Positions 28,875 to 54,863 of a DNA stretch of 64,000 bases are shown piece after piece (the stretch's first letter is position 1; the number at the start of each line of letters is the position of its first letter). Made by a program: the position numbers and the translations under genes. Origin of the DNA: a virus; the IMG/VR virus record IMGVR_UViG_3300042945_003044. One strand, 5' to 3'. The notes under the pieces are model-generated. The model was given only the letters and a program-made list of their open reading frames with translations, was not told the origin of the DNA and searched no databases.

Positions 28875-28890
28875 ACGCCGTTGATTATAT

Positions 28891-28902: not shown

Positions 28903-28950
28903 ATTAGATGCTATCAAAACTTTGAACCCGTATATTTAAAAGGCTAATTT

Positions 28951-29472: not shown

Positions 29473-29481
29473 GAATAAACT

Positions 29482-30399: not shown

Positions 30400-30402
30400 T
30401 CA

Positions 30403-30594
30403 ATGAATTATAACATAGCGCTATTTAAAAAATACGGATTAGTTGTTGTGAGTCAAAACTTGATACCGGTTCTGATTGACACCATAGCAAATAAGATAAC
30501 TATACAACGCAATATAATATTAGAACCTAAATACGCAACAGAGGAGCGGATCTCTGTGATTAAGTCGGACAATACCATTCCTTTGAAGCAATAA
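30403..30594 (+). CDS. Small hypothetical protein
   Basis: 63-aa ORF that exactly fills the gap between co-oriented genes. Confidence 0.5.
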   Translation: MNYNIALFKKYGLVVVSQNLIPVLIDTIANKITIQRNIILEPKYATEERISVIKSDNTIPLKQ

Positions 30595-30613
30595 TAAATA
30601 GAAAAGATTTATT

Positions 30614-33563: not shown

Positions 33564-33575
33564 TTTGATTTTTTA

Positions 33576-33587
33576 GGTGTATTTGAT
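33576..33587 (+). promoter_or_regulatory. GGTGTA-W-rich putative late promoter element
   Basis: Intergenic GGTGTATTTGAT, 48 nt before ATG 33624. Confidence 0.55.
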
Positions 33588-33623
33588 TATTGACCAAGCC
33601 AAAATTAACATGGAGATATTCAA

Positions 33624-34622
33624 ATGAGTAATAAAAGAATTTTTTACGCTTGCCAGGCAATCGAAATTCAGCCAATAGCCGCAAATGGTACAACAAGTAC
33701 AGCTGTTAAGCCCAAGGGTGTACAGAGCGTTGGAATGAACACCAACTTCAATCTCGAAAAGATCTTCCAGCTTGGTCAAATCGATCTTTATGATAATATC
33801 GAGAACAATCCCGAAGTTGAAATCACAGTCAATAAAGTATTTGACGGAACCGTACCTGTTTATCTTTTAGCGATGGGTGGCGGTCAGGTAGAGGGCAATA
33901 TAGGCGATTTTGCCAACAACAGAGCAAATGTTAAGCTTGGCATCTATAGTGATACCGGCGCCCTAGCTAGTGGCACAGCACAGCACACAGTAACATGCAC
34001 AGGCATGTATGTTTCCAGTGTTGGTTTTACCTTCCCAACCGATGGTAATGCTACAGAAGATGTTACCTTAGTTGGCAACAGTAAGACTTGGAGCGCTGGT
34101 GGTCTCAGTGCTTTCGTACCAAGTTCCGGCCCATACACAGCCCCAGCCACAGCTCGCAGATGGAAGTTCAATAGAGCAGAGAGCGTATTTCCTACTGGCG
34201 CAGGTGGTATAGGTAGTACCGCTCCTATTCAAAGCGTATCAGTAAATGCTGACTTTGGTAGAGAGTCTATTTACGAACTTGGTTCGTATACTCCATATCA
34301 TAGATACGTCAATTTCCCCGTTGAAGTCACTTCGGAAATTGAGGTTCTTGCTACTACTGGTGATTATTTAAACATCAGCGAAGCCACATATTCCTGCACC
34401 GGAACAGGAGAGGGTAGAGTACAAGATAAAGAAATTAAATTTGTTATTTGCGGTAGTGGCACAGGAGATAATCTAACTATCGATCTTGGCAAGAAAAACA
34501 AGATCACTTCTGTAAACTATCAAGGTGGAGATACTGGTGGTGGTAATGCTACAATTACTTATAGCTTTACTACAGATAACTACCTTAAGGTCACAGCAAA
34601 CGGCACCTTCGAGTCTGTTTAA
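33624..34622 (+). CDS. Major tail tube protein
   Basis: Internal duplication of the tube motif (GVQSVG..TNF.LE.IFQLG / IQSVSV..DFGRE.IYELG); GGAG RBS; position before chaperones and tape measure gene. Confidence 0.75.
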   Translation: MSNKRIFYACQAIEIQPIAANGTTSTAVKPKGVQSVGMNTNFNLEKIFQLGQIDLYDNIENNPEVEITVNKVFDGTVPVYLLAMGGGQVEGNIGDFANNRANVKLGIYSDTGALASGTAQHTVTCTGMYVSSVGFTFPTDGNATEDVTLVGNSKTWSAGGLSAFVPSSGPYTAPATARRWKFNRAESVFPTGAGGIGSTAPIQSVSVNADFGRESIYELGSYTPYHRYVNFPVEVTSEIEVLATTGDYLNISEATYSCTGTGEGRVQDKEIKFVICGSGTGDNLTIDLGKKNKITSVNYQGGDTGGGNATITYSFTTDNYLKVTANGTFESV

Positions 34623-34684
34623 TTTTTGGTTGATTCTAGTCGGTTATATAGGAATAAAAGGACGGACATTTATTAGGAGAATGT

Positions 34685-34828
34685 ATGGAAGAACTATTTC
34701 AGATTATAGGACGACTATATACCGATATGTATAATATGCAAAAGTATATGGAAGTATTACAGAATAAACTTAAAGAACAGGAACAGGAGCTTCTGGCGCT
34801 TAAAAATAAGGGCGCGCAAAACGACTAG
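34685..34828 (+). CDS. 47-aa coiled-coil protein, not in the ORF track
   Basis: AGGAG at 34675-34679; MEELFQIIGRLYTDMYNMQKYMEVLQNKLKEQEQELLALKNKGAQND-TAG; fills the gap before 34833. Confidence 0.7.
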   Translation: MEELFQIIGRLYTDMYNMQKYMEVLQNKLKEQEQELLALKNKGAQND

Positions 34829-34832
34829 ATAA

Positions 34833-35870
34833 ATGATTGATCCGGATATTGCTTTATCTTTATATAGAATTTTTACTGGGGCCCTATTTTTTTATTATGG
34901 TGGAGAGCAGTACGAACTAAGGTCTCCATCCAAAGAGATAAGATATAAAGCAGAGTTGTTATATAATAATATAATTAATGAAGAAAAATTTCATAATTGG
35001 ATTAGAGAAGAGAATCTTATTCCGACTATGATATCGTTAGGCGTTTGGCATATGAATACAGATAATTTGATCAAACAGCTAGAGAATAAATTAGATGCGT
35101 TAAAAGTTGACCTATATACTGATAGATTAAAGACTAAAGAAACCGAGAATAATAGAAAAAAAATTAAAACAACTCATAAAGAAATAAATAAAATAAGCAA
35201 CACCAAACTAAATTTTCAGGCCAATACCCTAGAAGGATATGCCAGCTCTATAAAGAACGAATATATAATATGTTCAACTTTATATAAAAATAATAAAAGG
35301 GTTTTTTCTAATTCGCCCAAAGACTCAGCCTCGTATGTTCATTTTAATAATATAGTAAACGAAATTAATTCCTATGTACTCTCTGTATCAGATTATAAGT
35401 CCATAGCCAGAAGCGCTTTATGGAAATCTTATTGGAATTGTGGGAATAAAACATCGATATTTTGTAAGTATACTATAGACTTGACAGATGAACAAAGGTC
35501 TTTATTAAATATTAGTAGAATGTATGACAGTATATATGAGCATCCAGAATGTCCAGAAGATATTGTTATAGAAGATGACGATATGCTGGATGGATGGATG
35601 ATTATCCAAAAGAAGAATAATGAACAGGCTAAAAAACAAAAATTAGGAAACAAAAACGCTAAGATAGAGAATGCTTCTGAAGTTTTTTTAATGACGGACG
35701 AACAGGATATTGGAAAGGTATTAGATCTAAATACCGATCAATCAAAATTTGTATTACAGGAAAAACTAGGATATATCAATAGCAATAAAGGATCGGAAGT
35801 AGAAGATTTTAATTTGCCGGATGTACAGAGAGACTTAATTACAAAAGCACAAAGCATGCGTAAACAATAA
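34833..35870 (+). CDS. Putative tail assembly chaperone (long form)
   Basis: Charged helical protein between tube and tape measure genes; N-terminal half paralogous to 36187. Confidence 0.55.
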   Translation: MIDPDIALSLYRIFTGALFFYYGGEQYELRSPSKEIRYKAELLYNNIINEEKFHNWIREENLIPTMISLGVWHMNTDNLIKQLENKLDALKVDLYTDRLKTKETENNRKKIKTTHKEINKISNTKLNFQANTLEGYASSIKNEYIICSTLYKNNKRVFSNSPKDSASYVHFNNIVNEINSYVLSVSDYKSIARSALWKSYWNCGNKTSIFCKYTIDLTDEQRSLLNISRMYDSIYEHPECPEDIVIEDDDMLDGWMIIQKKNNEQAKKQKLGNKNAKIENASEVFLMTDEQDIGKVLDLNTDQSKFVLQEKLGYINSNKGSEVEDFNLPDVQRDLITKAQSMRKQ

Positions 35871-35882
35871 GAGAAAGTTTTT

Positions 35883-36197
35883 ATGAAAAATAAACAAGAG
35901 CTAATCAAATCTATAGAGAAAAGAATACAAACTACTATGATAGGGGCTTTGGCCAGATTCGAAGAGAATTTTGGTCATTTATGGAATACAGAAGAGGATT
36001 CTGATGAGGCCGAAAGATTTTGGACAATTTGGGAAAACACCAGAAATCAAGTTTTGAATAATGGTAATAATCAGTTGAGATCAGCTTTAGACGATTTGGG
36101 GAATTATTTGTATAGCTCTGGCAAGCAAGATAAACACAAACATCCGTATCGATATAAATTCTATTTTAAAGATGGAGATAGCAGCAATGAAAACTAA
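35883..36197 (+). CDS. Hypothetical helical protein of the tail block
   Basis: 104-aa ORF, TTMIGAL..FE..FG.LW motif, tightly packed with neighbours. Confidence 0.65.
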   Translation: MKNKQELIKSIEKRIQTTMIGALARFEENFGHLWNTEEDSDEAERFWTIWENTRNQVLNNGNNQLRSALDDLGNYLYSSGKQDKHKHPYRYKFYFKDGDSSNEN

Positions 36198-37071
36198 AAC
36201 TTTTAAGGTTAAGATCAACGATAGTGATAGAGAAGTACTGGTTCGTACCCCTTCTTTAAATGACCAGAGAGAAGCTCAAAAGGTTTATAACCAGGCCTTT
36301 ACAGACGCTATAAAGAGCAAGAGCGTGGTTCGGGCCAAGCTCGATGACTTACTAGAAGATCAGGGACTATGGAATGCTGAAAAGCAAAAGAAGTTTAACG
36401 AGCTTCAAAAGGAGCTACTAGAGGGCGAAAAGAAACTAGCTAAGGGCGGATTTGGCCTAAATGAAGCTAAGGATCTTGCCATTCGCATGAAGGTTATTAG
36501 AGACGAAATCAGAGATTTAATAAGCGTACGAACCTCTTTAGATAACCATAGTGCAGAAGGACAGGCAGATAATGCTAGATTTAATTATTTAGTATCATCA
36601 TGCGTGGTGTATAATGATACCAAAGAGACTGTTTTTTCTAGCTTGGAAGACTATATGAATAGAGCCACAGAAGAGGTGGCAATATTGGCCGCCCAGAATT
36701 TGGCTAATATGTTATATGGTTTGGATAACGATTATGAATCTAACTTGCCAGAAAATAAGTTCCTTAAAAAGTATAGATTTGTTGATGATAAATTAAGACT
36801 AGTGGACAAAAAAGGAAGACTGATAGACGCGGAAGGCAGGCTAGTCAATGAAGACGGTAGATTTATTGATGAAGAAGGCAATTTTGTAGATAAGTTCGGC
36901 AATAAGGTAGATAAAGATGGTGATTATGTTGTTGACCCTCAACCGTTTTTAGATGAAAATGGAAATCCTGTCATTTTGGACGAAGCAAACAATGATAAAC
37001 AAGAACCAAATACTGAATCTGACAAGACTACAGATCAGTCATCAACAGAAAACACAGAGTCTACCACATAA
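36187..37071 (+). CDS. Putative tail assembly chaperone with acidic DxxG hairpin repeats
   Basis: ATG 36187 follows GGAG; last gene before the tape measure gene; LVDKKGRLIDAEGRLVNEDGRFIDEEGNFVDKFGNKVDKDG repeats. Confidence 0.6.
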   Translation: MKTKTFKVKINDSDREVLVRTPSLNDQREAQKVYNQAFTDAIKSKSVVRAKLDDLLEDQGLWNAEKQKKFNELQKELLEGEKKLAKGGFGLNEAKDLAIRMKVIRDEIRDLISVRTSLDNHSAEGQADNARFNYLVSSCVVYNDTKETVFSSLEDYMNRATEEVAILAAQNLANMLYGLDNDYESNLPENKFLKKYRFVDDKLRLVDKKGRLIDAEGRLVNEDGRFIDEEGNFVDKFGNKVDKDGDYVVDPQPFLDENGNPVILDEANNDKQEPNTESDKTTDQSSTENTESTT

Positions 37072-37100
37072 TTCTTTGTTGCTATCAGATAGTTTTCATT

Positions 37101-37145
37101 CAGAATCCCTAGCGTCTTTTATTGATTCTAGGGATTTTGTTTTTT
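37101..37145 (+). terminator. Rho-independent terminator-like hairpin
   Basis: AATCCCTAG (37104-37112) pairs with CTAGGGATT (37128-37136), followed by TTGTTTTTT. Confidence 0.7.
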
Positions 37146-37171
37146 ATTATCCTCCAATTGTATAAAATATT

Positions 37172-40100
37172 ATGTCACAATCGTTTAATTTAACAGCCCA
37201 GCTAAATTTAAGAGGACCATCTAATGTTAGAAATATTGTATCTGATATTAGAAGACAATTGGGGTCAATTTCCGCAGATGTGAACTTACGATTGGACCAA
37301 AATGCCTCACGCAATGTTACTCAGCTCAATGCTGCTTTAAGAAATCTTAACAATACTTTTGGCACTACTCAGACAGCGGCCAGAAATGCTGCAAATGCTA
37401 TTAGAGATTTTTCTCAGGCGGTCGGTAATGCCGGAGTGGCTAATTTACCAAGACAGCTCAATAATGTCGTTACCGCTACACAAAGAGTCGGAGCTACTAG
37501 CACCACAGCGGCCAGACAGTTAAATGTTGCTAGAACAGAAATGGAAGAGTTCGGAAGACAGTCGGCCTTAGCTATTAGAAGATTTGCTGCATTTAGCTTA
37601 GCCACCGGCGCCGTATTTTCTTTTACAGGAGCCATCAATAAAGGCATAGCCGCATTTATCGAGTTTGATAAAGAATTCGTTAAGCTGCAACAGGTTACAG
37701 GCGAATCTGCAGATGGTCTTAAGAGACTATCGAATACTATTACGTCATTATCTGTTGATTTTGGAGTAGCATCAGGAGACCTTATCAAAGTATCATCAAC
37801 ATTAGCCCAGGCCGGTTTAAGCGCCAAAGATACCGAGAGAGCATTAAAAGCATTGGCTCTTAGTGCTTTAGCTCCGTCTTTTGATGATATGAATAAAACG
37901 GTGGAAGGCTCTATTGCTTTGATGAGACAGTTCGGCATTGGAGCGTCTGATCTAGAAAAAGCGCTAGGCTCTGTTAACTCGGTTGCTGCCAGATTCGCAG
38001 TAGAAGCCAGCGATATTATAGCCGCTATTCAGCGTACTGGTGGAGTGTTCGCTTCTGCTAGTAATGGAGTTAGTCAGGGTACCGATGCTCTTAATGAGTT
38101 TATAGCGGTATTTACTAGTATACGAGCCACTACTCGTGAAAGCGCAGAAACTATTGCTACTGGTTTACGTACTATTTTTACTAGAGTTCAAAGAGGAGGA
38201 ACTATAGAGGCTCTGAAAGAATTCGGGGTTAATCTAACCGATGCAGAGGGCAAGTTCGTTGGAGCATATAAGGCTGTTGAGTTATTGTCTAGAGGATTAA
38301 ATCAAATAGATCCGAGAGATTTAAAGTTTTCTCAGATTGTTGAGGAGCTTGGCGGCTTCCGTCAGATCGGTAAGGTTATTCCATTAATTCAGCAATTCGG
38401 AACAGCCCAGGAAGCTTTGAAGGTAGCACAGACTGGGCAGGGGTCTTTGGCGGCAGACGCGGCAACAGCCCAGTTGTCCCTGGCTAATCAGATAGCCAAA
38501 GTAAGAGAAGAATTTACTGCTCTTGTAAGAGATATTGGTGGCTCAGATACTTTTCAGACACTGGCAAAGGGAGCGCTGCAGCTCGCTAGTGGTTTGATTC
38601 AAGTAGCGGATAGCGTTAAAGGAGTTTTGCCTATTCTTGGATTGATGATGGCCGTTAGAGGAGCTAGTGTAGCGACTCAATATGGTTCTGGTTTTATAGG
38701 AGGTCTTCGTAGAGGCAACGCTGGGGGAGCAGCTGCTCCTAGAAGAAATGCTTATGGGGGTTATATAAGTAGATATAAAAAAGGAGGACCAGTAGATGTT
38801 CCAGTTGCTTTGATGCCGGGAGAGGCCGTGGTATATCCTGAAGCGGTTAAAGAAGTAGGCGTATCTAAATTAAGAAAAATGAATTATGCAGACAGAAAAC
38901 CTATGGCCAAAGGAGGTAAGGTTGGATTGGTTCCAGGATCTGGCAATACCGATAGTTTTTATACTACTCTTCCAGAAGGTAGTTTTGTTATAAGAAAAAA
39001 GGCTACGGAAGCACTCGGTGGACCAGAAGGTATTTTAGGGTCTTCGGGTTATCAATACGGCGGTTCTGTGCAAAGATTCCGCGGAGGATCTTCTTCCGGT
39101 CTCAAGGAGACGCAAAGAACTCACATAGGACCAAAAGTTCCTCTTAGTTATCGAGAGGCGATGGCAGCGAAAAAAAGAGGCACCGGTTCACTAAAGGTGG
39201 TGAGTGGTAAAACAGAAAGACAAATTAATTTTGAACCCAATATATCTACGTTAATAAATCAGAGACTTAGAAGAAAGACAGGAAAAACTGGAGTTACTAA
39301 AAAAGAGTTAGTCGAAGACATCTCAAAAAGATCCCCCGAACAACTTTTTGGCGATGGAGGCGTACCATCTGTTATATTCAAAGAGTTGCTTGCATCAAAA
39401 AAGCTTGAGGGTCTTAAGACGGCCTTGTTGAGAGGTGTTAAGTCTAGATCTGTACCTCAGACTCTAAGATCAGACTCAGAATTAGACTTTATTCTGGAAA
39501 AGAATATTAAACCATATTTATCTAAAATTAATACTCAGGTCGGTAGTTTGTGGGATGAATTAATGCAGTACCAGGCGCTCACCAATCCTAGAGAGGTTGG
39601 TGGTCGTACAACCCTCCCAGCTGTTAAAAAGGTTTTAGGAAAATCTTTCGGCTCAACTTTTGCATCTGGAGGTCTTATACAAAAATTTGCCAGAGGTACC
39701 TCTAAGCCTTTGGAGGCCATGGGTAAGGCTGATTTACTTAAGGAAGCAGAAAGGCTAGGAGTCAATATTCCTATAGAGCTTAGACGTTTTCTAGATCCAA
39801 GAGCAAAGGGGTCTGAACAGACCAGAGCAAAGATCATTAAAGATCTACAAGAAAAAAGAACTATCACCAAAACATCCGAAGAGAATATTGCCAATAGGGC
39901 TAAAAACAGAAAATTAGCCGTTGTTGGACTACGAGGCGATACGTCCTCTTCTACCGTTACGACTCCGGGACTTAAAGATAAAACAGGAAGACAAAGATTA
40001 CGAGGGGTCCCAGCGACCCTGCAAACCGGCAGTCTACCAAATGATCTAGCGACACAAGTGGAAGATATTATACGTTCTCAATCAGAAAGCATAGTAGCTC

Positions 40101-43100
40101 AAATAGGTCAAGCTATTGCCAAAGCCGCCGGAACAACACCTATTACGGACCAAAAAAGAATTAGTGAAATTTTAACTAAACAGTTACCCAATTTATCTGG
40201 ATTGATGTTTGAGAGCGGATTGGCTGTTGCTGGGGCTCCATATGATCCTAAATCAAAAGCTATTGATTTTAATATGGGATTAGGTAAAAAATTAGCAAAC
40301 CTTTTTGGAGTAGATCCTAAAGCATTAACAGACGCCACAAATGATGCAACAAAAGAACAGGCTAAAAGAAAACTTACAAAAGGACAATTTGATAGAGGTC
40401 GTAGAGATAAGTTAAGGACTAAAAGATTATCTAGAGCTCTTGGTGGTTTTATAGCTATGGCTAAAGGAGGCATGCCTTTAGTAGACGATCTCCCCAACGC
40501 TCCTGGATCTATGTTGCCGATGCCTGGTATGAAACCTGGTTCTCCATTATATGAAATAATACGTAATGGAGGAGGGGCTATTGATTATGATAGGACTTTG
40601 CAAAGAACCACTGGAGATGCAGCATATGCAAGCGCAAAAACTCCAGAACAAAAAGAAGCGGTTTTAACCAAATATTTCAGAGACCCCCAAGCAAGAATCA
40701 AAGATGCTCAAAGTGCTAGATTAACACAATTTGGCAAACAATTACAAGAGCTAGTCAAAAAGGGCGTTATACAGCCGAAAAACTTATCTATAATTAGTAA
40801 ATCTAGTAGAACTCCTGGATTAGCTGAGCATATTAATCAATTATTCGGTATACCTGTTCAAAATATGGTATTTACCAGAGGAGGTAGCAAATTACCCGCT
40901 CTTGAAGCACTAAGAACTAAAGGGCCTAGAATAAATAGAGTAGCTAGGGCTTCTGGCGGAGAAGTCCCCATCATGGCTCAGGAAGGGGAATATGTTATTA
41001 ATAGAAAATCCGCAAAAGCTATAGGATATGGCAATCTTCATACATTAAATAAATATCATAGTGGTGGAATAGTACAAAGATTTGCTAGAGGTTCCGATTC
41101 TCCTCTTAAGATGGCTATGTCAGGGCAGGGTAGGGTTCAAATAGCCAAACAATTGATGGATCAGGGCATGTCTGCTGCCAAAGCATTGGCCGAGGCAACT
41201 AAAGCTATTGAGTCTATGTCTCAGGCGGCTCAACAAACGGCTGCGAGTCTTAAAAAACAATCTCAGAGCGTTGGTTACAGAGGTATGAATGTGTTAGCCG
41301 GTAGAGGAGTGGATATTACTACCGGAGGCGTTCTTGATCAAGCAAAAGAAAAAGAATATAGAGACAATCAAAGAGCTAATAGGGTTGTAAGGAGAGCTTC
41401 TAGAACAAGATTAGCTGTTGATACTAATGCTTATGGTCCTTTGCTGCCTGGCCAAAAGGGTGTTGTTACCAGAACTCCTAGCGCTATAGATAATGCTAGA
41501 AACGAAGCCGTTCAATCGGTATTAGGCAGAGAACGAGCTGGCGGAGCGGGTTCAGTAAAACAAATGATGAGAACTCAATTATCGAATGATAGAAGCTCCC
41601 TCAGAGACAGAGTAGCAGCAAGATTCAAAGACAGATACGATGCCGCGTCCGATCCAGCAGAAAAACAAAAGGTTCAAGATAGAGCTAACAAAGTATTTGC
41701 TAGAGCTAATCAATCATTAACGGCAAATGCTCAACAAAATTATGTACAGCAAATCAATGCTAAGATGCAGATTGCTCAACAAGCCGCTGCTGATGACGCT
41801 GCTGCTAGAATTCGTATTGCTAATTTTGCTAAACAAAGCGCCACTGCGGCACAACAACAGCCAACGCTATTTCAAAAAATTACTCAGGGAATTAGTAAAA
41901 TGGCGACGGCCGCACAAAAGTCTGCTGGTTTTGGCGGCGGATCAGGAGGAGGACTAATACCTTCTGGCAGCAGAGGAGCAAATATGATGGCCCAGGCTAG
42001 AGATGCTAGGGCTCAAGGTTTACGAGGTCAGGCTTTTAGAGATAGCATGGCAGGATCGGCTGGCGGAGGTATAGGTAGTAAAATAGGAAATGCGGCTATG
42101 GGGCTTTCCTTTGCCATACCAATGATCGCAGATCAGTTTACGACAGCAGACCCAAAAACAGCAGAGCAGGCTAAGAACAATGCTATGATATCTGGTAGTA
42201 GCACAGCTATTGGTAGCGCAGCTATGCTTGCCTCTATGGGTCCTGTTGGCATAGCTGCTGGTATAGTAGCCGGAGCAGCAGGATTAGCTAAAGCATTTAC
42301 AGACGCAGAAAATGCAGCAAATGATTTTAATAGAGGTTTAAAGGTAGATAAATTAGAGCAAACGCTTGAGGCAGCAGCCAAGTCCCTAGATAAATTCTCT
42401 AAAGACATAAAGAACAACGTATTTGCTACAGACGCCAAGAAAAATGTAGTAGAAGCCACTAAACAAGCCCAAGCTATCACAGACTCAGACTCACAAACAG
42501 TAAAAAGAGGACTATTTAATTTTTTTGACACTGCCGATAATGGTACGAGCTCAGAGAAACGAGCGGCAGCAGAAAGATCTCAAATATTGGATAAACAAGG
42601 GATAATGGCATATTTGCGTTCTACAGAGATGTTTGGTGGGGAAGACGCTAAATCCAACCGGGCGTTTTCAATGAGTCAAAATATACCAGAACTATCTAGA
42701 GAAAGAGCGAAGAATTTTACCGGAGCGGCTGATGCCTCCAGACAATTTATAACAAGTAAAATCAGATCAGGATCTTCTATTGAAGGTCTCAAATCGGACA
42801 AAGATTTTGCTGGTTTCACTAAAAGCTTAGCTCTTGCAGACGCAGCGCTACAAGAACAAATTCTAACTATACAAAATAATACTTCGTTAGAAGAAAATAA
42901 AAAGAAAGCTCTCATAGATAGTACTATTGCGACAGTAGCAGACGCTAAAGCCAGAGAAATTCAGTCTCAAACTCTAAAAGAGATGGATCTAGAAGCTCTT
43001 AGCAAGTCTACTATTGTTTTACAAAATAGCTTAGAGAGAATGTTTCAAAATATGGAACAGTCTATTATGGCGAATGCTTTTGCGCTAGATAAGCTTACCG

Positions 43101-46100
43101 CTAGTGCAGAGCTCACCACCTCAGCACTATCAGGATCTGCCAGGGTAGGATCTGTAAAGCTAGATAGTATAAACGTATTGCAAAATAGTAGAGCTTATGG
43201 GGCTAATGCGAATGCGGGAGCTGTAGACCAGGCAGCTTCTATGTTCGGCAGCGAAGCTAAGTCAATGAAAGGGATATTACAGGTTTCTGGTAGACTTGAG
43301 GATACGTTATTATCTACAATCAATAGTACTTTAAAAAATAATCCATCCGCAAGTAACGAGGCCGTTGGTATCAAATTAGACCAAGCTATATTTAAAGCTT
43401 TAAACGACTTAGAGCTGCCACCAGACCTATCAACTAAATTATCTGGCGAGGTAAAGAGCGCCGTACAGGATATGAGGAAATCTGGGGATGATAAAATTGA
43501 TTTTAGTCAATTGGTAGAAAAAATTCCACAACTCGGAAACGTTGTAGACAGTGCAAAGAGAGCTCAAGAAACTGCGATACGAGCTCTAGAAAACTGGCAG
43601 AATGCACTAAACGATTATGCCAATACAACTAATCAATTGATAGATCTACAAATTGATAGTAATCAAAAGCTAAGACGAGCTACTGATACCCTGGTTTCTG
43701 GGCAAAATGAGCTTAATAGAGTTTTAGGTAAAACAGTATCATTACAAAGCGTAGTGGCTGACACTAGAGCTGCAACTGCGTCTCAGACCGGAGGCCCAAC
43801 ATCTGCTGTAGATATTAGAAGACAGATACAAGATTTAGAATTGACCAGACAATCTCAACAATCAAGATCCGACGCCGCCGCTCAAAAGGGTTTTTCTGGT
43901 AAAGACGAATTTATGATGATGCAGGGAAGGCTGAGGGAAACAAGTGTTGCGTTAAGAGAGTCATACGATGCGCTTAAAGGCCTTAGCGAAAACACTACTG
44001 TTGCTAGTGCAGCGTTAAATAAAATGTCGGAGATTCAACAGAAGCAACAAGCTGGAGTAGCCATCATTGAGAAATTGGTCACCAGCACCCCAGCAGAAAT
44101 TAATAAATTTAATCAGGCCTTGGCTAGATTAGATAACAATATGAAGGGTCGGGCTAATTTTGGGACCAATGCCGACCAGAGACGCGACAGCCTAGAAGCT
44201 TTTAACATGATCATGCCGTTTCTCGGAGATAAGCAGAGTGGTATGAAGGCCAATGTTCTAGAATCTATGCTTAGAGAATCTGGCATAAACTCTTCGCCAA
44301 TGATGCAGCAAGTGATAGATTCTTTAAGAAATCCAGAAGCCGATCCACAAATGGCAGAAGCTATAGGTATATATAGAGAAGCGCTAGCTGAACAAGCATT
44401 TGCAAATGAACAGTTAGCTGCCTTGAATCAGCTTATTGCGGAGAATAATTCTGACACCGCCGCTGTTAAATTAGCTACAGCTATCGGAGGTGTCTCATTA
44501 AACTTTGAAAGCAGGCAACTGCAAGATATTAATGATAATATTAAAAATTTAATTACTGTTGTTAAAAATAATAGGGAGGATAAGAAGCCAGCAGCAGCTG
44601 AGGCAGAGATGCTCGCAAGAGGAGGTGTTGTATATGCTTCCGCGGGTCAGTTAATTAATTTTGCTCCAAAGGGGACGGATACAGTACCGGCTATGTTGAC
44701 CCCAGGAGAATTTGTTGTCAATAGATCTGCTACTCAAAAAAATCTACCTCTTTTAAAATCTATTAACAATGGATACTCGAATGGTGGAAGAGTACAGTAC
44801 TATAATCAAGGAGGTTTAGTATTTGGCGGAGGTTGGGGATTGGATCAAAAGCAAGATGCGGAAAAGCAGGCCGGGATTCAACAACAAGAGACAGCGACAC
44901 AATATCCAGACATATTATCTCTTAACGCTAATCCATATGACCACATGACAAAGGCCGTCGCTCTGCCGGGGTATTTTTACGCCTCGAATCCGGCACCAGG
45001 AGATATTTCAGATTGGTTCAGTCCTAAAGTTGGACGGAAGCCTTTGGTGAGTATCGGCGCCAATGCGAGTTTAGGAGCATCTTATGATACTATTAGTATG
45101 ACTACAGAGGATGATCGACCTACGATTGAGAAAAGAACTACTTTTACAGGTCCCATAGATGTGGGTTATGTGCCGCAATCAGATTTTTTTGATAATGTAA
45201 TATCTGAGAGAGATATTCAAAGAAAAAAACATATCACAAAAAATCAAATAGAGGACTATAAAAATAAATTAGAAACGCTGTTAAAACTTAAAAGATTTGT
45301 TGTGCAAAGTTCTGATGCCGGTACGTTTATGGGGTCTATTGACACAGGTTCAAAAAAAATAGCCACAAAAGTAGACGCGGATAATAGACCTAAAATAGAG
45401 CCAACTATTGAAGTGGGTAAATATGTCAATAGAGGATTGTCTAGTGTGCCACTAGTAACACTGAGCGGTCTAACAAAAACCACTAACGGTCTTTATGGCC
45501 TATACTCAGTAGCAGATCTAGAAGGAGAAGGGTCTTCTGGTCAAAATACTAATGCTGGAAACCCTTATGGTTTTACAAATAGATCAACAGCCACTACTAT
45601 CATTTCTCCGGACATGAAGGTGGTTGCCGGGTTATCCAATATGAAGCATGATACTGTTGATCCGTCTATAGGCATGGCATTATCTAAATACGTCACTAAT
45701 TATGACGGTATGGCTAAGGCTACTGGTCCGATAATGCAAAACAATATCCAGTCATTATCAAGAGTATTTGATGCTTTGTCTCAAACTAAGATTCCAGAGA
45801 TCGAGGCAGACGGTTCGATTTCTGAACCATTGAAAGAAACCGATTCTTCCTTAAAGAATAAAACATATATTAACAAATTACAACAGCTATTATCTGGTGC
45901 AATATTTTCGGCTCAATTCGATGAGACAGAAATTAAGGGTAAAGACAATGTTAAACCACCAATAACATTATTTAATTTAACGGCCGATAAATGGAATAAT
46001 TTAGCTAATTCTTTTAAAAATTATCAGCCTGCGCCGCCCACCAATAGCTATGCTGAAAACAGTAGTAATTTTATACCTATAAATCCAGCGCAAAAATCAC

Positions 46101-48280
46101 TACCGTGGATAGCTGCTGGATTTAATCATGTAGATGCTATCAATAACCTAAAGGGAGAATATCAAAAAAATAATACATCTAATATAAAAGTTACATCAGG
46201 TTCCGTCGAAGATGAGTTCATGAAATTTAACTACAAAACTATTCAAGGAGGATTTGGCACCAATAAAACATTAGATCAGTCATTAGGAGCCATTAAATAT
46301 GTTGTTGCTGATTTAGATGCCAACAGCAAAGAACAGCCGCTAAACCCATTCAAAGATTTAGACCCTGTTAATTTAATTGGTAGATCGATATATGCGGATA
46401 GTATCGAAACCTTAAAAGGGCGTATTCAACCAATAATTAATGCAGTGACAGGAGGTCTCAATACAGATAATTTGCCGCCAGTGCCTTACGCCACTGTGCA
46501 AAAAATAAATAGCACTGATCTTGGTGCGCTAGATTATTCCGAAGACACAAAAAATAATGCTTATATGCCAAAGACAGCTGTTCTTGGCGGTAACTTTAAT
46601 GCTACTAATTACATTAATGAAATTAAAGGATTATTTAATAAAAAAGAACTAATAGCAGGAGCTGTGGCAGCTGAAACTACTGATAAACGCACTGATGCTG
46701 GTATAAAACAAGCAAATATAGAAAATCCGTTGGGTATAGCTAGGGGCATTATACAGAAAGTACTAGCTCCTATAAGCGGCGTTTTATCGGCATACAATAT
46801 GAAGCTGATGCCCTTAACAAAAGCGACAGACATATTGCCATACGGTAATCTTTTATTTGGTGGGCAAAAGTTTTTTGGACAAGCTGTTATGGAAAAAATG
46901 AAAGGGAGGACTCCGCCAGAGGCGTTGTATAATGTTTGGGGAGCAATAGGAGCTGCCGCACAAACATTTTTAAAACTAGGAGCAGGAGATTCTCAAGGAT
47001 TGTCTTCGATGCTAGGCGTTAGCTTTGACGGTAAACCAGACGCTACAATACCAGACAAAGTTAATCAATACGCAAAGTTTTTAGCTAAGCAAGGAATGAT
47101 GTCCCAGGGTCTGGGGGCAGATATCTTGGATAAAGAAATAAATAAAGACAATCAAAAGGCAATCGAGGGGGCTTTTGGGGATAAAAACCAATCGATTTTT
47201 GAGGCTACTGGACTAGAGAAAACAACTTGGAATAAACAATCTGATAGAACTTCTCCCAAAACCATATTAGATTTGGGTAAAAAGATACTGAATCCATACT
47301 CTATGTTTCCTACGGAAACAAGAAATAATCTCTTTGGTATTTTAGAGAAAGAGCTTGCTAATCAAAAGGTTAACCAGGGCGTTATTGATACTATCAAGAA
47401 GGTTCGATCTTTCTACAATACTTTTTTGGATCCTTTTGTGAATGGTGATGGTCAAGCCGGCAATGATAAATGGAGACGTGGTTTTGATAGCCTATACCCC
47501 GACGCCAATTCTGCTTTACAGCTATTAACGAATGGAGCATTTGGAAAATTACCAGATTATAATATGGCGTTACAGCTCCAAGCAAAGAGAAAAGCCTTAG
47601 CAGAGGAAGTCAAAAAGCCGCAGAAGAAAGCCAGAGGGGGCATAATCTATGCTCAAACAGGCACTCTAGTTGATTATCAGCCCAGAGGCACCGATACCGT
47701 TCCAGCCATGTTGACCCCCGGAGAATTTGTGGTCAATAGAGCGGCCACTCAAAAACATCTACCTGTCTTAAAAGCTATTAATAGTGGCCAATATTCTACT
47801 GGTGGAATGGTTAATTATCTTAATCAAGGGGGTATTATTATACCTCAATATCACTCTAATATCCCAAATGTATCGTCTACAAATAAGACTGTAGGTGTAT
47901 CTAATTTACAGCTGGGCTTGGCCCCATCGGCTGTAAGTGCTTTGGAAAATTTTAATCGCGCTTTTGCTCAAAATGCAGCATTACTAAATATTAATTTAGA
48001 TGATAAGAGTCAAAAGGCTATTGATAATTTTACAATTAGATTACAGAATGTGGCTAATACTATCAGTGGTTTGGCTATTCCAGAAAATATTCAAATTACA
48101 GCACAACATAAAGTAGAGGTTATAATAAATGGCGGAGAGGCACTAAAGGGAATGAGCGAAGGAATGAAAGAATATGTTGTTTCTTCGATCAATACTGCCG
48201 TCAGTAGGCTTAATGTTACTACAGAGAATGCTCTTGGGGAACAATCTAATCAAATACTTAAAGGTAGTTCATCAGTATGA
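37172..48280 (+). CDS. Tape measure protein (TP901-type core) with multiple cargo segments
   Basis: Helical core (LAQAG, ETIATGLRTIFTR, LGGFRQ); hydrophobic Ala/Gly helices; repeated GTDTVPAMLTPGEFVVN motifs; 3702 aa. Confidence 0.92.
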   Translation: MSQSFNLTAQLNLRGPSNVRNIVSDIRRQLGSISADVNLRLDQNASRNVTQLNAALRNLNNTFGTTQTAARNAANAIRDFSQAVGNAGVANLPRQLNNVVTATQRVGATSTTAARQLNVARTEMEEFGRQSALAIRRFAAFSLATGAVFSFTGAINKGIAAFIEFDKEFVKLQQVTGESADGLKRLSNTITSLSVDFGVASGDLIKVSSTLAQAGLSAKDTERALKALALSALAPSFDDMNKTVEGSIALMRQFGIGASDLEKALGSVNSVAARFAVEASDIIAAIQRTGGVFASASNGVSQGTDALNEFIAVFTSIRATTRESAETIATGLRTIFTRVQRGGTIEALKEFGVNLTDAEGKFVGAYKAVELLSRGLNQIDPRDLKFSQIVEELGGFRQIGKVIPLIQQFGTAQEALKVAQTGQGSLAADAATAQLSLANQIAKVREEFTALVRDIGGSDTFQTLAKGALQLASGLIQVADSVKGVLPILGLMMAVRGASVATQYGSGFIGGLRRGNAGGAAAPRRNAYGGYISRYKKGGPVDVPVALMPGEAVVYPEAVKEVGVSKLRKMNYADRKPMAKGGKVGLVPGSGNTDSFYTTLPEGSFVIRKKATEALGGPEGILGSSGYQYGGSVQRFRGGSSSGLKETQRTHIGPKVPLSYREAMAAKKRGTGSLKVVSGKTERQINFEPNISTLINQRLRRKTGKTGVTKKELVEDISKRSPEQLFGDGGVPSVIFKELLASKKLEGLKTALLRGVKSRSVPQTLRSDSELDFILEKNIKPYLSKINTQVGSLWDELMQYQALTNPREVGGRTTLPAVKKVLGKSFGSTFASGGLIQKFARGTSKPLEAMGKADLLKEAERLGVNIPIELRRFLDPRAKGSEQTRAKIIKDLQEKRTITKTSEENIANRAKNRKLAVVGLRGDTSSSTVTTPGLKDKTGRQRLRGVPATLQTGSLPNDLATQVEDIIRSQSESIVAQIGQAIAKAAGTTPITDQKRISEILTKQLPNLSGLMFESGLAVAGAPYDPKSKAIDFNMGLGKKLANLFGVDPKALTDATNDATKEQAKRKLTKGQFDRGRRDKLRTKRLSRALGGFIAMAKGGMPLVDDLPNAPGSMLPMPGMKPGSPLYEIIRNGGGAIDYDRTLQRTTGDAAYASAKTPEQKEAVLTKYFRDPQARIKDAQSARLTQFGKQLQELVKKGVIQPKNLSIISKSSRTPGLAEHINQLFGIPVQNMVFTRGGSKLPALEALRTKGPRINRVARASGGEVPIMAQEGEYVINRKSAKAIGYGNLHTLNKYHSGGIVQRFARGSDSPLKMAMSGQGRVQIAKQLMDQGMSAAKALAEATKAIESMSQAAQQTAASLKKQSQSVGYRGMNVLAGRGVDITTGGVLDQAKEKEYRDNQRANRVVRRASRTRLAVDTNAYGPLLPGQKGVVTRTPSAIDNARNEAVQSVLGRERAGGAGSVKQMMRTQLSNDRSSLRDRVAARFKDRYDAASDPAEKQKVQDRANKVFARANQSLTANAQQNYVQQINAKMQIAQQAAADDAAARIRIANFAKQSATAAQQQPTLFQKITQGISKMATAAQKSAGFGGGSGGGLIPSGSRGANMMAQARDARAQGLRGQAFRDSMAGSAGGGIGSKIGNAAMGLSFAIPMIADQFTTADPKTAEQAKNNAMISGSSTAIGSAAMLASMGPVGIAAGIVAGAAGLAKAFTDAENAANDFNRGLKVDKLEQTLEAAAKSLDKFSKDIKNNVFATDAKKNVVEATKQAQAITDSDSQTVKRGLFNFFDTADNGTSSEKRAAAERSQILDKQGIMAYLRSTEMFGGEDAKSNRAFSMSQNIPELSRERAKNFTGAADASRQFITSKIRSGSSIEGLKSDKDFAGFTKSLALADAALQEQILTIQNNTSLEENKKKALIDSTIATVADAKAREIQSQTLKEMDLEALSKSTIVLQNSLERMFQNMEQSIMANAFALDKLTASAELTTSALSGSARVGSVKLDSINVLQNSRAYGANANAGAVDQAASMFGSEAKSMKGILQVSGRLEDTLLSTINSTLKNNPSASNEAVGIKLDQAIFKALNDLELPPDLSTKLSGEVKSAVQDMRKSGDDKIDFSQLVEKIPQLGNVVDSAKRAQETAIRALENWQNALNDYANTTNQLIDLQIDSNQKLRRATDTLVSGQNELNRVLGKTVSLQSVVADTRAATASQTGGPTSAVDIRRQIQDLELTRQSQQSRSDAAAQKGFSGKDEFMMMQGRLRETSVALRESYDALKGLSENTTVASAALNKMSEIQQKQQAGVAIIEKLVTSTPAEINKFNQALARLDNNMKGRANFGTNADQRRDSLEAFNMIMPFLGDKQSGMKANVLESMLRESGINSSPMMQQVIDSLRNPEADPQMAEAIGIYREALAEQAFANEQLAALNQLIAENNSDTAAVKLATAIGGVSLNFESRQLQDINDNIKNLITVVKNNREDKKPAAAEAEMLARGGVVYASAGQLINFAPKGTDTVPAMLTPGEFVVNRSATQKNLPLLKSINNGYSNGGRVQYYNQGGLVFGGGWGLDQKQDAEKQAGIQQQETATQYPDILSLNANPYDHMTKAVALPGYFYASNPAPGDISDWFSPKVGRKPLVSIGANASLGASYDTISMTTEDDRPTIEKRTTFTGPIDVGYVPQSDFFDNVISERDIQRKKHITKNQIEDYKNKLETLLKLKRFVVQSSDAGTFMGSIDTGSKKIATKVDADNRPKIEPTIEVGKYVNRGLSSVPLVTLSGLTKTTNGLYGLYSVADLEGEGSSGQNTNAGNPYGFTNRSTATTIISPDMKVVAGLSNMKHDTVDPSIGMALSKYVTNYDGMAKATGPIMQNNIQSLSRVFDALSQTKIPEIEADGSISEPLKETDSSLKNKTYINKLQQLLSGAIFSAQFDETEIKGKDNVKPPITLFNLTADKWNNLANSFKNYQPAPPTNSYAENSSNFIPINPAQKSLPWIAAGFNHVDAINNLKGEYQKNNTSNIKVTSGSVEDEFMKFNYKTIQGGFGTNKTLDQSLGAIKYVVADLDANSKEQPLNPFKDLDPVNLIGRSIYADSIETLKGRIQPIINAVTGGLNTDNLPPVPYATVQKINSTDLGALDYSEDTKNNAYMPKTAVLGGNFNATNYINEIKGLFNKKELIAGAVAAETTDKRTDAGIKQANIENPLGIARGIIQKVLAPISGVLSAYNMKLMPLTKATDILPYGNLLFGGQKFFGQAVMEKMKGRTPPEALYNVWGAIGAAAQTFLKLGAGDSQGLSSMLGVSFDGKPDATIPDKVNQYAKFLAKQGMMSQGLGADILDKEINKDNQKAIEGAFGDKNQSIFEATGLEKTTWNKQSDRTSPKTILDLGKKILNPYSMFPTETRNNLFGILEKELANQKVNQGVIDTIKKVRSFYNTFLDPFVNGDGQAGNDKWRRGFDSLYPDANSALQLLTNGAFGKLPDYNMALQLQAKRKALAEEVKKPQKKARGGIIYAQTGTLVDYQPRGTDTVPAMLTPGEFVVNRAATQKHLPVLKAINSGQYSTGGMVNYLNQGGIIIPQYHSNIPNVSSTNKTVGVSNLQLGLAPSAVSALENFNRAFAQNAALLNINLDDKSQKAIDNFTIRLQNVANTISGLAIPENIQITAQHKVEVIINGGEALKGMSEGMKEYVVSSINTAVSRLNVTTENALGEQSNQILKGSSSV

Positions 48281-50631
48281 TAAATTCATATATTAAAATT
48301 CCAGATAATGTTGGCGCATCTTTCGAAATAGTCAATGGAAGATTTATTTTACAGGCACCAGAGCCGACGTTTGTTGGTCTCGACGCTTCTTTAATAGGTC
48401 ATTTTATACCATATTTTGCCAAAAATCTTTTATCCACTGGTGCAACAGAATGGGAAGCCGGTATAGGCAAAGTAATATCTACCACTATAGTGGAAAGAGA
48501 AGAGGTTTCTGGTTCGTCTAACAATGATGAGTTAGTATTTTTTAGTTTCGGTGGGACAAAAACGTTTTTCGTATATCCTAATCAGTATTCTGTGGATCTT
48601 GGGTATAATAATTTAATTACCAGTACGGGCGTGTTCAATATTGGAGACGTAAGGTCTACATACGTTGTAGATCTATCTACCAATCATGCTTCTGGTACTC
48701 TGCCCGTAGCATCCGGTAATCGCGGTCTTATACTAGATTTTAAAGCATATAATAGAAATAATAAGGATTTACATATTATTGCTTCTAGTGGAGATTTAAT
48801 AGATGGTTCAGCTTCTTTAACTATAGATTATGATAATGCCTACACCTCTTTGGTATCGAATGGTTCTGGCTGGATAGAACTAAAAAATGAGGTTAATCTA
48901 AATATAGATCCGGATTTGATGGGTACTCCACAAGGACCAAATGGCTCTATTCAATACAAAGTTAATTCTACCTCTTTTGGTGGCTCAAATATATATTATA
49001 GCAACGCTTCTAATAGCCTGCTATTTGGCGGTACGGGATCGGAACAATCCGCCGATACAGTCATATCAGGATCTGGTACAACCATTTTTAATAAAACATC
49101 CAAGAATACAGACTTTATTATTAATGGTAGTGGTAATAGAAATTGTATTTTTGATGCTTCTGGAAAGATAGGTTTAAATTTGCCGTCGGGAGCAAAGCCC
49201 GCCACATTACTACACATCGTTGGACAGGGATGCGATAGTAACATAAGATTGGAGAATAGGAGTTCCTGCTCCACTCCTAAACTTGTACTTTATCATAAGC
49301 CCTCTACCACTCTTGATAGTGGGTCATTAGTTGGTAGCATACATCTAGCAGGCAAAAATTCTGTTGGATCAGAGATAGACTATTCTCAAATTCGCACAAG
49401 AGCCATTTCTTCTCAAGCCTCTAGTCCTAGTGGAGAACTTGTTGTATCAATAAATAATGGCGGTTCCTCATTAGATAGCTTAACCGTTAATTCAGATTCG
49501 GTTGCTATTAGAAATAAAAACAGACAATTACAAATATCTACAAGCGGTGTGATTGCTGATAAAATAGTCGTTTCGGATTCTTTACATTTATTGCCATTGT
49601 CTATTAGTGGTAGTATACTGAGCGTAGGACAATCTGGTATTTTAGAGAGCGCAGGATATACCAAGTCGGATCTAGCTTCGATTGGAACTAAAGCGTCCTT
49701 ATCTGGCGCTATTTTTAGCGGTAATATTACTGCTCCCAGGATTAATGCTCCAGCACTTTCTCAGTCGTCTGGATCTTACATAGATTTTTCTAGCTCTACT
49801 CTTATTGGTAATTGGAATATAGGAGCAGACACGATATTAGCAAAGGATACAAATAACACATCCGATCAAGGCTCTGTTTTAACGCATACTGGATCTGGAA
49901 TAGCATGGTCAAAACCAAGCGCAGATAATTTTATATGGTCGGGCTTAGATATATCTTGGGAAAAATATCCTATAAGATCTTGCTTTATACAAAACGGGGG
50001 AGACGTTTTAGCTATTAGTGCTATCGGTTTAAGCAATGAGTTTAGTGTTGGAGATACGGTAAAAATTAGTGTTAATACCAATAATTATTTTAGAACAATT
50101 AATAGCATTACAGAAAGTAATGGCTATACAAATATCGTATTGAATCAGATTCTACCGATCTCTGGAACGGGTAATATTTTCTCCATAAATAAAGGAGGAT
50201 ATTTAAATCTTAGTGTAGAAAATTCCGGAGCACCAGCTATTTCGCCTCAGACAACAATTAGTTGCAGACCTCTTACCAATACTATTTTTAATCAAAATAA
50301 GCATTCTATAGACTTTCAGATTAATGGCGAATCAGTTGCTCCAGCAATTTATGTAAATGCTAAGCCGTCCAATAGATTAGAGGCCGTCTCCGCCACTGTT
50401 ATTAATGGATCGTCACCTAAGATTGTTCAACAGTCCGGTAATTTAAATAGATATGCATCTTTAAGCGTTAGTGGCTATATTTATACAGACAGTATTAGTA
50501 TAGGTCAAACACCAGTGCCTTCTGGATATATTTTAACTTCTACATCTGGTAATATTGCGCAATGGCAGTCTACAAATACTATTAGTGATCTAGACGGCGG
50601 CGTAATTGTATTTAGCGGAGTAAGTCTATGA
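48277..50631 (+). CDS. Ser/Gly-rich tail fibre-like protein
   Basis: EWE.GIG.......R..V..SSN N-terminal motif; PQGPNGSIQY; KIGLN..P...LHIVG fibre motifs; C-terminal DGG. Confidence 0.7.
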   Translation: MINSYIKIPDNVGASFEIVNGRFILQAPEPTFVGLDASLIGHFIPYFAKNLLSTGATEWEAGIGKVISTTIVEREEVSGSSNNDELVFFSFGGTKTFFVYPNQYSVDLGYNNLITSTGVFNIGDVRSTYVVDLSTNHASGTLPVASGNRGLILDFKAYNRNNKDLHIIASSGDLIDGSASLTIDYDNAYTSLVSNGSGWIELKNEVNLNIDPDLMGTPQGPNGSIQYKVNSTSFGGSNIYYSNASNSLLFGGTGSEQSADTVISGSGTTIFNKTSKNTDFIINGSGNRNCIFDASGKIGLNLPSGAKPATLLHIVGQGCDSNIRLENRSSCSTPKLVLYHKPSTTLDSGSLVGSIHLAGKNSVGSEIDYSQIRTRAISSQASSPSGELVVSINNGGSSLDSLTVNSDSVAIRNKNRQLQISTSGVIADKIVVSDSLHLLPLSISGSILSVGQSGILESAGYTKSDLASIGTKASLSGAIFSGNITAPRINAPALSQSSGSYIDFSSSTLIGNWNIGADTILAKDTNNTSDQGSVLTHTGSGIAWSKPSADNFIWSGLDISWEKYPIRSCFIQNGGDVLAISAIGLSNEFSVGDTVKISVNTNNYFRTINSITESNGYTNIVLNQILPISGTGNIFSINKGGYLNLSVENSGAPAISPQTTISCRPLTNTIFNQNKHSIDFQINGESVAPAIYVNAKPSNRLEAVSATVINGSSPKIVQQSGNLNRYASLSVSGYIYTDSISIGQTPVPSGYILTSTSGNIAQWQSTNTISDLDGGVIVFSGVSL

Positions 50632-51146
50632 GCTTTAAATTTAAAAGAGATATTTCTACAACCCTGGCCCCAGCCTTAGATCAGGTTGACGTGGGAGAAC
50701 TAGTACTAAATGTGCAGACCGGTACTCTCTATACAAAGAAAAGAGATTCAGAAGGCAATGAAAGTATAGTCAAGTTTATTTCTGTACCACTATCTTCTTC
50801 TGGAGATGGGTCTTGTAGCAATATGCTACCGGTTATATCTTTTGCTGATGTCACTAATTTTTGCTGCAATGGTTCGGTATTAGTGGCTACTATTAATAAC
50901 CTCATGGCTAGCTCAATATACAAATATAGTGTACAAGATTTAACCAGTAATTCTACTGTCATATTTTCTCAGAGTTCTGGGGACATCACTCCGCTTGGTA
51001 GATCCACTAGACAAGTTCCTATTTCTATTAACATCAACACTAATCAGCCTAATGCTTTAATAAAGTTTAGTGTTTTAGACAATAACAACAATTTACAAAG
51101 CGAAGCTATAGTGGCCATTTGTTGCAAGAACTGTGCCGCAACATAA
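50628..51146 (+). CDS. Fibre-anchor domain + one Cys-bounded beta-sandwich module
   Basis: FKR.....P......GELVLN...G.LY.K anchor, then CC...Y.Y...SG...IKF...AICCKNC. Confidence 0.7.
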   Translation: MSFKFKRDISTTLAPALDQVDVGELVLNVQTGTLYTKKRDSEGNESIVKFISVPLSSSGDGSCSNMLPVISFADVTNFCCNGSVLVATINNLMASSIYKYSVQDLTSNSTVIFSQSSGDITPLGRSTRQVPISININTNQPNALIKFSVLDNNNNLQSEAIVAICCKNCAAT

Positions 51147-51155
51147 GGATAAAAC

Positions 51156-52379: not shown

Positions 52380-52397
52380 TTCAAAAAGAAACTATAT

Positions 52398-52451
52398 TGT
52401 GTATAATAGTTTAGAATCTTTTATTTTGAAGGAGATTTTGGTATATTTATA
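52398..52451 (+). promoter_or_regulatory. Variant late-promoter-like elements (TGTGTATAATAG; GGTATATTTATA)
   Basis: Two single-mismatch copies of the GGTGTA motif in the gap before ATG 52468. Confidence 0.4.
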
Positions 52452-52467
52452 ATGATTTTAGGAATAT

Positions 52468-54848: not shown

Positions 54849-54863
54849 GAAGAAGGTTTCGTA

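Follow-up and report, generated by a model that had tools for sequence, protein, structure and literature searches.

A giant phage tape measure protein probably built from cassettes joined at a conserved module

The window analysed here, 64,000 nucleotides (nt) of IMG/VR virus record IMGVR_UViG_3300042945_003044, holds one very long open reading frame (ORF), P0001, in which a short glycine-rich module recurs. We consider it likely that P0001 is one gene for a giant, cassette-built tape measure protein (TMP), and that the conserved module marks both the boundaries between its domains and the joints at which segments are exchanged in evolution. The source record is 99.8 kb long and estimated to be 67% complete. 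An original prediction, made from the letters of the window alone, had called the ORF a TMP, and family searches bear this out: residues 188–393 score 77 bits with Pfam PF10145 (PhageMin_Tail), whose cut-off is 33.2, and the protein matches PHROG 28, ‘tail length tape measure protein’, with E 5e-29. DNA searches found no close cultured phage, and a protein search returned only distant matches to the N-terminal TMP domain; judged by its sequence, P0001 is the TMP of a freshwater phage that is not in culture.

The junction module spans 50–75 aa and is present in five copies, M1 to M5 (Table 1). It begins with FAxGG, continues with GTDTVPAMLTPGEFVVN and L..LN, and ends with Y..GG.V..F..GG, a GG half-motif that also stands alone at two further sites in P0001. 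All seven GG motifs of the original prediction are present where it had placed them, and its five VPxMLxPGExV elements (cores at aa 538–582, 589–639, 1261–1307, 2499–2548 and 3503–3554) proved to be significant copies of a single module. They score independent E-values (i-E) of 5e-13 to 6e-25 with an iterated hidden Markov model (HMM) that returned zero decoy matches, and they find one another in pairwise BLAST (M4 versus M5, E 5e-32 and 68% identity; the others, E 1e-3 to 1e-6). A six-frame scan of the whole window detected these five significant copies, all inside the TMP ORF. Between motif centres the segments measure about 200, 258, 175 and 970 aa, in agreement with the roughly 190, 245, 160 and 940 aa first estimated. 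The modules at 44.6 kb and 47.6 kb (M4 and M5), which bracket the 940-aa segment, had also been described as similar in DNA, and they are ~75–80% identical over ~210 nt. Many of their differences are synonymous, which argues for constraint at the protein level and not for a recent duplication.

Table 1. Parts of the tape measure protein P0001 and of its relatives. Nucleotide positions are those of the window.
Feature	Residues (aa)	Position (nt)	Strand	Basis	In relatives
Tail TMP gene, P0001, single ORF	3,702 aa	37172..48280	+	open frame; PF10145 E 2e-21; phrog_28 E 5e-29	
N-terminal TMP domain, most conserved large block	1–505	37172..38686	+	PF10145; present in 119/119 relatives	~530–650 aa
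Module M1	523–582	38738..38917	+	HMM i-E 5.5e-13	
GG motif NAYGGYISRYKKGG	526	38747	+		
Module M2, degenerate core TTLPEGSFVI	583–645	38918..39106	+	HMM i-E 1.6e-14	
GG motif YQYGGSVQRFRGG	627	39050	+		
Variable slot after first modules					259–2,281 aa
Cassette S1a, small folded domain	646–825	39107..39646	+	pLDDT 75–91 at aa ~689–800	rare
Isolated GG junction motif FASGGLIQKFARG	826–848 (motif 830)	39647..39715 (motif 39659)	+	short GG-motif HMM, 14.1 bits	
Cassette S1b, alpha/beta domain, no matched fold	849–1085	39716..40426	+	pLDDT 90–97	
Isolated double-GG junction motif ALGGFIAMAKGG	1086–1101 (motif 1088)	40427..40474 (motif 40433)	+		
Cassette S1c, weakly HAD-phosphatase-like	1102–1250	40475..40921	+	pLDDT 81–94	
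Module M3	1251–1315	40922..41116	+	HMM i-E 1.3e-20	
GG motif YHSGGIVQRFARG	1295	41054	+		
S2, Gly-rich/hydrophobic stretch, then long Pro/Gly-poor helical region	1316–2480	41117..44611	+	composition	~1,050–1,550 aa
Module M4, core nearly invariant across family, left S3-swap breakpoint	2481–2560	44612..44851	+	HMM i-E 6e-25	
GG motif YSNGGRVQYYNQGG	2535	44774	+		
S3, 925-aa folded multi-domain segment, collinear but hypervariable	2561–3485	44852..47626	+	AlphaFold2, HMM	~950–1,100 aa
Module M5, right S3-swap breakpoint	3486–3565	47627..47866	+	HMM i-E 5.5e-24	
GG motif YSTGGMVNYLNQGG	3541	47792	+		
Extra module-bounded segments after S3					0–4 segments
C-terminal tail S4	3566–3702	47867..48277	+	59 relatives, always past last module	~130–160 aa, nearly all

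A word-indexed search revealed 386 relatives of 2,036–6,479 aa, of which the best 120 were examined; the family counts below refer to 121 giant relatives with lengths of 2,875–6,427 aa. Every one of the 121 carries between three and nine modules, most often five, and the parts always follow the same order: N-terminal domain, one or two modules, a variable slot, a module, S2, a module, S3, a module, extra segments and the tail. The consensus over 676 module copies is P-x-G-T-D-T-V-P-A-M-L-T-P-G-E-F-V-(V/I)-N ... L-x-x-(I/M/L)-N-x-Y-x-x-G-G-x-V-x-x-(F/L/Y)-A-x-G-G, with the G conserved in 99% of copies, the E in 87% and the N in 88%; a short HMM of the GG motif matched the 121 relatives 463 times and the reversed sequences not once. 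Searches with single segments of P0001 recovered the N-terminal domain in all 119 relatives (58–76% identical in many of them), S2 in 109 and the tail in 59; S3 was recovered in only 14, S1a in 3, S1b in 27 and S1c in 15.

Comparison of these homologous TMPs showed gain, loss and swapping of segments at the motifs, as had been predicted. Local alignments between P0001 and its relatives start or stop at aa 831–837, 1088–1102 and 1307–1312, and homology blocks in relatives begin at aa 831–837, beside the isolated motif FASGGLIQKFARG. The cassette S1b is found relocated, at aa ~1357–1630 in relative P0013 and 1407–1683 in P0018, while P0075 has the cassette order reversed, with S1c ahead of S1b. 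Enzymes, which the original prediction had expected in such slots, are carried by relatives: P0031 has an ADP-ribosyltransferase (PF03496, E 2e-9; R-S-E type, with STS and EQE motifs visible) at aa ~1156–1370, splitting the two GGs of the motif that corresponds to ALGGFIAMAKGG of P0001, and P0072 has a staphylococcal-nuclease (SNase) domain at aa ~726–822, right after M1. EF-hand calcium-binding motifs occur in the post-S3 slot of P0052 (aa ~3955–4005). In the variable slot, 37% of the endpoints of long high-scoring segment pairs (HSPs) lie no more than 10 aa from a GG landmark, where random positions give 7% (96 relatives), a statistic that is supportive only, since the pairs are not independent.

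The sharpest exchange is seen against a near-identical phage, a freshwater-metagenome contig from run SRR3184736 (locus L015). Its TMP, P0002 (3,697 aa), is ~100% identical to P0001 over aa 1–1750 and 3501–3702 and 20–64% identical over S3. At the DNA level, identity is 95.4% over window positions 27130–44859 and 98.9% over 47667–58280, with a patchy 66–75% over 44860–47666; the breaks are at nt 44859, in the C-terminal GG motif of M4, and at nt 47667, in the M5 core. Together, these alignments show that it is at the modules that related phages swap, add, reorder and replace segments, in keeping with the role of recombination joints originally proposed for the GG motifs. The companion proposal of a swappable payload held for the variable slot and, in a modified sense, for S3. 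An iterated HMM finds S3 homologous and collinear, always between two modules, in at least 100 of the 121 relatives; it thus belongs to the backbone, is replaced by divergent alleles and not by unrelated cargo, and is no free payload. The ~10 kb of tail genes downstream are 98.9% identical between the two phages, so a partner for S3 is unlikely to be encoded there, which argues for a host-side partner or a self-contained role.

The segments between the modules had been described as non-helical and enzyme-like; composition and AlphaFold2 models agree that they are not a helical ruler, and the second term found weak support, in S1c only. The S3 segment and the S1 cassettes are richer in proline, glycine and aromatic residues than S2. 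Modelled from a family alignment, the region M4–S3–M5 has a mean predicted local distance difference test (pLDDT) of 78.7, with most of S3 at 80–95; from N to C terminus S3 passes from a part rich in beta strands through an alpha/beta section to a bundle of helices. Over 58 aligned relatives the mean column identity in the S3 interior is 21%, while the module cores are invariant in 58/58. Only 11 relatives of S3 were detectable among 1.84 billion representative proteins, all of them giant TMPs or TMP fragments, and a pattern scan of IMG/VR with S3 gave no match. The corresponding family-alignment model of aa 500–1320 has a mean pLDDT of 71.5. By composition and predicted fold, the segments are not a plain helical ruler: each folds on its own, and the joints between them are flexible and marked by glycines.

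Searches with Foldseek matched none of the inter-motif segments to a known enzyme fold, S1c being weakly HAD-like. For S3, S1a and S1b, neither Foldseek against the PDB and BFVD nor VIA (wide, with a second look) gave anything convincing; the S3 and aa 500–1320 models are multi-domain, which makes these negatives weak, and the folds are not shown to be new. A PDB sequence search with the whole TMP, M4 alone or the S3 profile returned nothing beyond the module. In S1b, residues E1014, D1032 and D1054 are conserved, from which a PD-(D/E)xK-type nuclease would be a guess, one that the fold searches did not support; no free-standing S1b homologue was found among proteins of 135–431 aa, other lengths not being searched. 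For S1c, structural matches are weak: class C and class B acid phosphatases at Z 6.5–5.5 (~128 residues aligned, root mean square deviation ~4) and the phosphatase of T4 Pnkp at Z 5.1. The DxDxT signature of HAD motif I is kept in all true S1c homologues, as (I/L/V)D(Y/F/I/V)D(R/G)T, with D1138, at the end of a modelled strand, present in 16/18. Also conserved are S1209/S1211, at a strand end, and K1240, whose equivalence to HAD motifs II and III derives from the weak superposition. The strand corresponding to HAD motif IV is followed by T-x-G-G-S-K, without acidic residues, and the model has three core strands against the five-stranded Rossmann-like core of HAD proteins. Lacking an acidic motif IV and having too few core strands, S1c is best described as weakly HAD-phosphatase-like in its model and is not filed as a HAD member.

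The S2 segment differs in kind. A glycine-rich hydrophobic stretch at aa 1561–1710, peaking in hydrophobicity at aa 1683–1710, is followed by a weak coiled-coil-type Pfam match (aa 1726–1781), and the 780-aa part S2c has 1.5% proline, 5.1% glycine and 51% helix formers, by composition alone. From these features S2 is likely to be the ruler and membrane-channel part of the chain. We also observed that window positions 42430–43009 (aa ~1753–1946, in S2) are only 64–68% identical in DNA to L015 amid a helical region at 90–100%, in a patch that no module bounds. Beyond S3, M5 ends 148 aa before the stop codon, where the single module of lambda gpH ends 59 aa before the end of the protein; the S4 tail is presumably, by position, the counterpart of the tip-bound end of lambda gpH and of Douge gp16 (PMC10721106, PMC13033339).

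The module itself matched no Pfam family (40 copies tested), and we found no earlier description of it, or of TMP polyproteins, within open-access papers and preprints. AlphaFold2 predicts M1 and M2 as strand-strand-helix-helix units at pLDDT 62–79 (66–79 for M1), places M4 and M5 at 43–62 and leaves the GG linkers disordered, at <50. A predicted complex of three module copies scored 0.01, which speaks neither for nor against a homotrimer. A LysM domain, suggested by the G-E-F-V...L..LN...GG spacing and by a LysM receptor kinase at E 0.56, was considered and rejected: the Pfam LysM model had no match in the genome at E <= 10 and matched 0/40 module copies, and hhalign gave a probability of 0.3% when 622 module copies were aligned with eight LysM domains of E. 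coli. Double-glycine leaders of the C39-substrate kind were likewise set aside, as the GG motifs recur inside a virion protein of 3,702 aa; no search for a C39 peptidase was made.

The module is also found in well-studied phages. In a PDB sequence search, a 40-copy profile matched the TMPs of three solved tails: mycobacteriophage Douge gp16, with two copies (E 2e-14), lambda gpH at residues 733–794 (E 6e-6) and the TMP of Pseudomonas phage JBD30 (E 6e-3). It is visible in none of the three structures; gpH was modelled only for residues 818–849 (PMC10721106) and gp16 only for residues 1658–1699 (PMC13033339). A tblastn search with a single module copy matched 183 cultured-phage records, mostly TMPs of Gordonia, Arthrobacter and Rhodococcus phages, often at two places each, and also cyanomyoviruses. 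Among the latter, Synechococcus phage S-SM2, a T4-like cyanophage, has one strong copy (E 1e-18) in SSM2_012 (L014 4005–6305), a gene annotated merely as ‘transmembrane protein’ that adjoins the baseplate hub gene gp26 and is followed by a transglycosylase-domain protein. Gordonia phage Yeezy gp18 (2,109 aa) resembles P0001 in miniature: modules at aa 929–976, 1231–1265, 1606–1648 and 1943–1988 bracket domains, and an SLT transglycosylase domain (aa 1511–1601) abuts the third. It differs from P0001 in that its cargo is a peptidoglycan hydrolase, an accessory already familiar from TMPs, that it is much shorter and that it has no equivalent of the 925-aa hypervariable domain. A cell-wall hydrolase motif is likewise described in the TMP of actinobacteriophage TM4 (PMC12617516, citing Piuri and Hatfull 2006).

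Judged by the profile match, the module of P0001 is the same element as the single copy in lambda gpH, and its setting is alike: in gpH the ruler and a hydrophobic stretch come first, then the module, then a short C-terminal helix docked in the tail tip. The differences are of scale, lambda gpH having one module in 853 residues and no embedded folded cassettes, whereas P0001 has five modules, two half-motifs and ~1,500 globular residues. PMC12617516 describes the cut that frees a ~14-kDa C-terminal fragment of gpH, gpHC (~residues 690–853): it falls in a glycine-rich region, with its exact site and its catalyst still to be identified.

On the reading favoured here, the modules and half-motifs divide the P0001 chain into the N-terminal TMP domain, a variable slot with three small folded cassettes, a hydrophobic and long helical part as the likely ruler and channel, the folded 925-aa domain and a short C-terminal stretch that presumably binds the tail tip. 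Strong conservation of the module as protein would supply the homology for segment exchange. The segments would travel in the tail and, as is general for TMPs, leave ahead of the DNA; the small cassettes would then act in the host, and the hypervariable 925-aa domain may deal with a variable host-side partner at DNA entry. The near-invariance of the module suggests that it also has a specific molecular job of its own, in processing, docking or refolding.

Several points weigh against this reading. The cassettes of P0001 itself match no enzyme family by sequence, and none convincingly by fold; delivery of segments into the host is something that we infer for an uncultured phage; and how folded domains of ~100 kDa, in 3–6 copies, would fit the tail lumen is unexplained. 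The HSP-endpoint statistic counts many related pairs, and conserved motifs are places where alignments tend to stop. Between P0001 and P0002 the divergence sets in gradually on its left side, through S2, with 64–91% DNA identity from nt 41230, and the S3 block alone has two sharp edges at modules.

The module could be an assembly or docking element that stays uncut and binds a chaperone, the tube lumen or the tip, or serves refolding or oligomerisation after ejection; cassette exchange at the modules would then be a by-product of their conservation. We regard this as a real, if minority, possibility. No other part of the protein is as conserved as the module, whose cores are invariant in all 58 aligned relatives; its last copy always precedes the tail that presumably docks in the tip, and its predicted strand-strand-helix-helix unit is repeatable. 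That phages of Proteobacteria, Actinobacteria and cyanobacteria all carry the module suggests that its function in the virion is a core one. However, no partner is known, the module is not seen in the solved lambda and Douge tails (PMC10721106, PMC13033339) and its models are of low confidence (pLDDT 43–79).

We think it somewhat unlikely that P0001 is instead a true polyprotein, whose GG motifs or modules are cut, by autocatalysis or by a phage or host protease, to free the segments in the host as effectors. The disordered GG linkers between autonomous predicted folds would suit this, and near-invariant G, E and N residues are more than a passive linker needs. The single lambda module lies inside gpHC, ~40 residues from the estimated cut that yields gpH* and gpHC, and cutting of P0001 is suggested by this analogy only. 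But the lambda cut is near the module and not demonstrably within it, and lambda and T5 are the only phages whose TMPs are known to be cut (PMC12617516), neither being multi-module in this comparison. T5 pb2 is cut once, to pb2* and the 92-residue pb2C, and its C-terminal part acts on the host envelope (PMC12617516); it gave no module match in the PDB sequence search, whereas P0001 has an array of joints. Double-glycine leader peptides are N-terminal, whereas these motifs recur inside the protein. A search confined to Prok-JAB, NlpC/P60 and S78 proteases gave no match in the 99.8-kb record, itself 67% complete. The proposal that the GG motifs serve in cleavage or export thus found no direct support, the lambda analogy being suggestive but imprecise.

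A bolder form of this idea, which we hold to be doubtful, makes the module a self-contained processing signal: any domain placed between two GG joints would be packed in the tail, cut free and injected before the DNA as an independent effector. Were it true, the same chemistry would explain the cut from gpH to gpH* in lambda, and the effectors would be the phosphatase-like or nuclease-like domain of P0001 and the ADP-ribosyltransferase of its relatives. For the module itself, a processing site and a docking or assembly element appear about equally likely and are not mutually exclusive. An artefact, whether misassembly or read-through fusion of several genes with the repeats as assembly-induced duplications, is very improbable: although the record is metagenome-derived and M4 and M5 are alike in DNA, the two differ at many synonymous sites, the part order recurs in 121 relatives from different samples and assemblers, on >100 independent contigs, which makes a chimera unlikely, and the independent freshwater contig L015 has a 3,697-aa ORF with identical flanks.

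For cargo borne by a TMP there is a published precedent beyond cell-wall hydrolases. Thermus phage P23-45 gp96 is a 5,002-aa TMP fused to a virion RNA polymerase (bioRxiv 10.1101/2022.12.01.518664). Like P0001 it is a giant TMP, and it carries a folded enzyme into the host; it differs in being a single N-terminal fusion, in a phage of a thermophile, with no repeated modules or slots reported, where P0001 has a module array.

The genes neighbouring the TMP gene had no firm family matches in the family searches. Directly upstream, ORFs 35883–36197 (104 aa) and 36172–37071 (299 aa) overlap, and in overlapping immediately before a TMP gene they recall a tail assembly chaperone pair. Frame +1 with respect to the first ORF is the one in which the second is read, and ATGAAAACTAA lies in their overlap; this may be a site of programmed frameshifting, possibly of a type other than the usual −1. 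The orthologue of the 332-aa ORF 33624–34622 (L015 6453–7451) has a faint match to the Pfam myovirus tube family Phi812_tail_tube, and PHROGs gives a weak match to ‘virion structural protein’. The orthologue of the 305-aa ORF 29482–30399 (L015 2353–3270) weakly matches a proprotein-convertase P-domain; rather than a protease, this is probably a decoration domain with a beta-sandwich fold. Window positions 31030–31329, in ORF 30614–31990, are 78% identical in DNA to L015, the sole other patch below 93% in the shared 31 kb, and may be another host-interaction site.

TMPs are usually treated as rulers, sometimes carrying a cell-wall enzyme. Here, a large family of TMPs from uncultured phages (hundreds of clusters, up to 6,427 aa) appears to be built from exchangeable folded units. 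The module adjoins the unmapped cut in lambda gpH, so that an old question becomes testable in a model phage by way of a defined 60-residue element. The clean swap of S3 between near-identical phages suggests a fast-evolving determinant inside the tail, distinct from the receptor-binding fibres; if S3 is a determinant of host interaction, this would point to an arms race at the DNA-entry step. The ADP-ribosyltransferase, nuclease and EF-hand motifs in the slots of relatives suggest, in addition, that these tails may offer a general route for delivering proteins alongside the genome.

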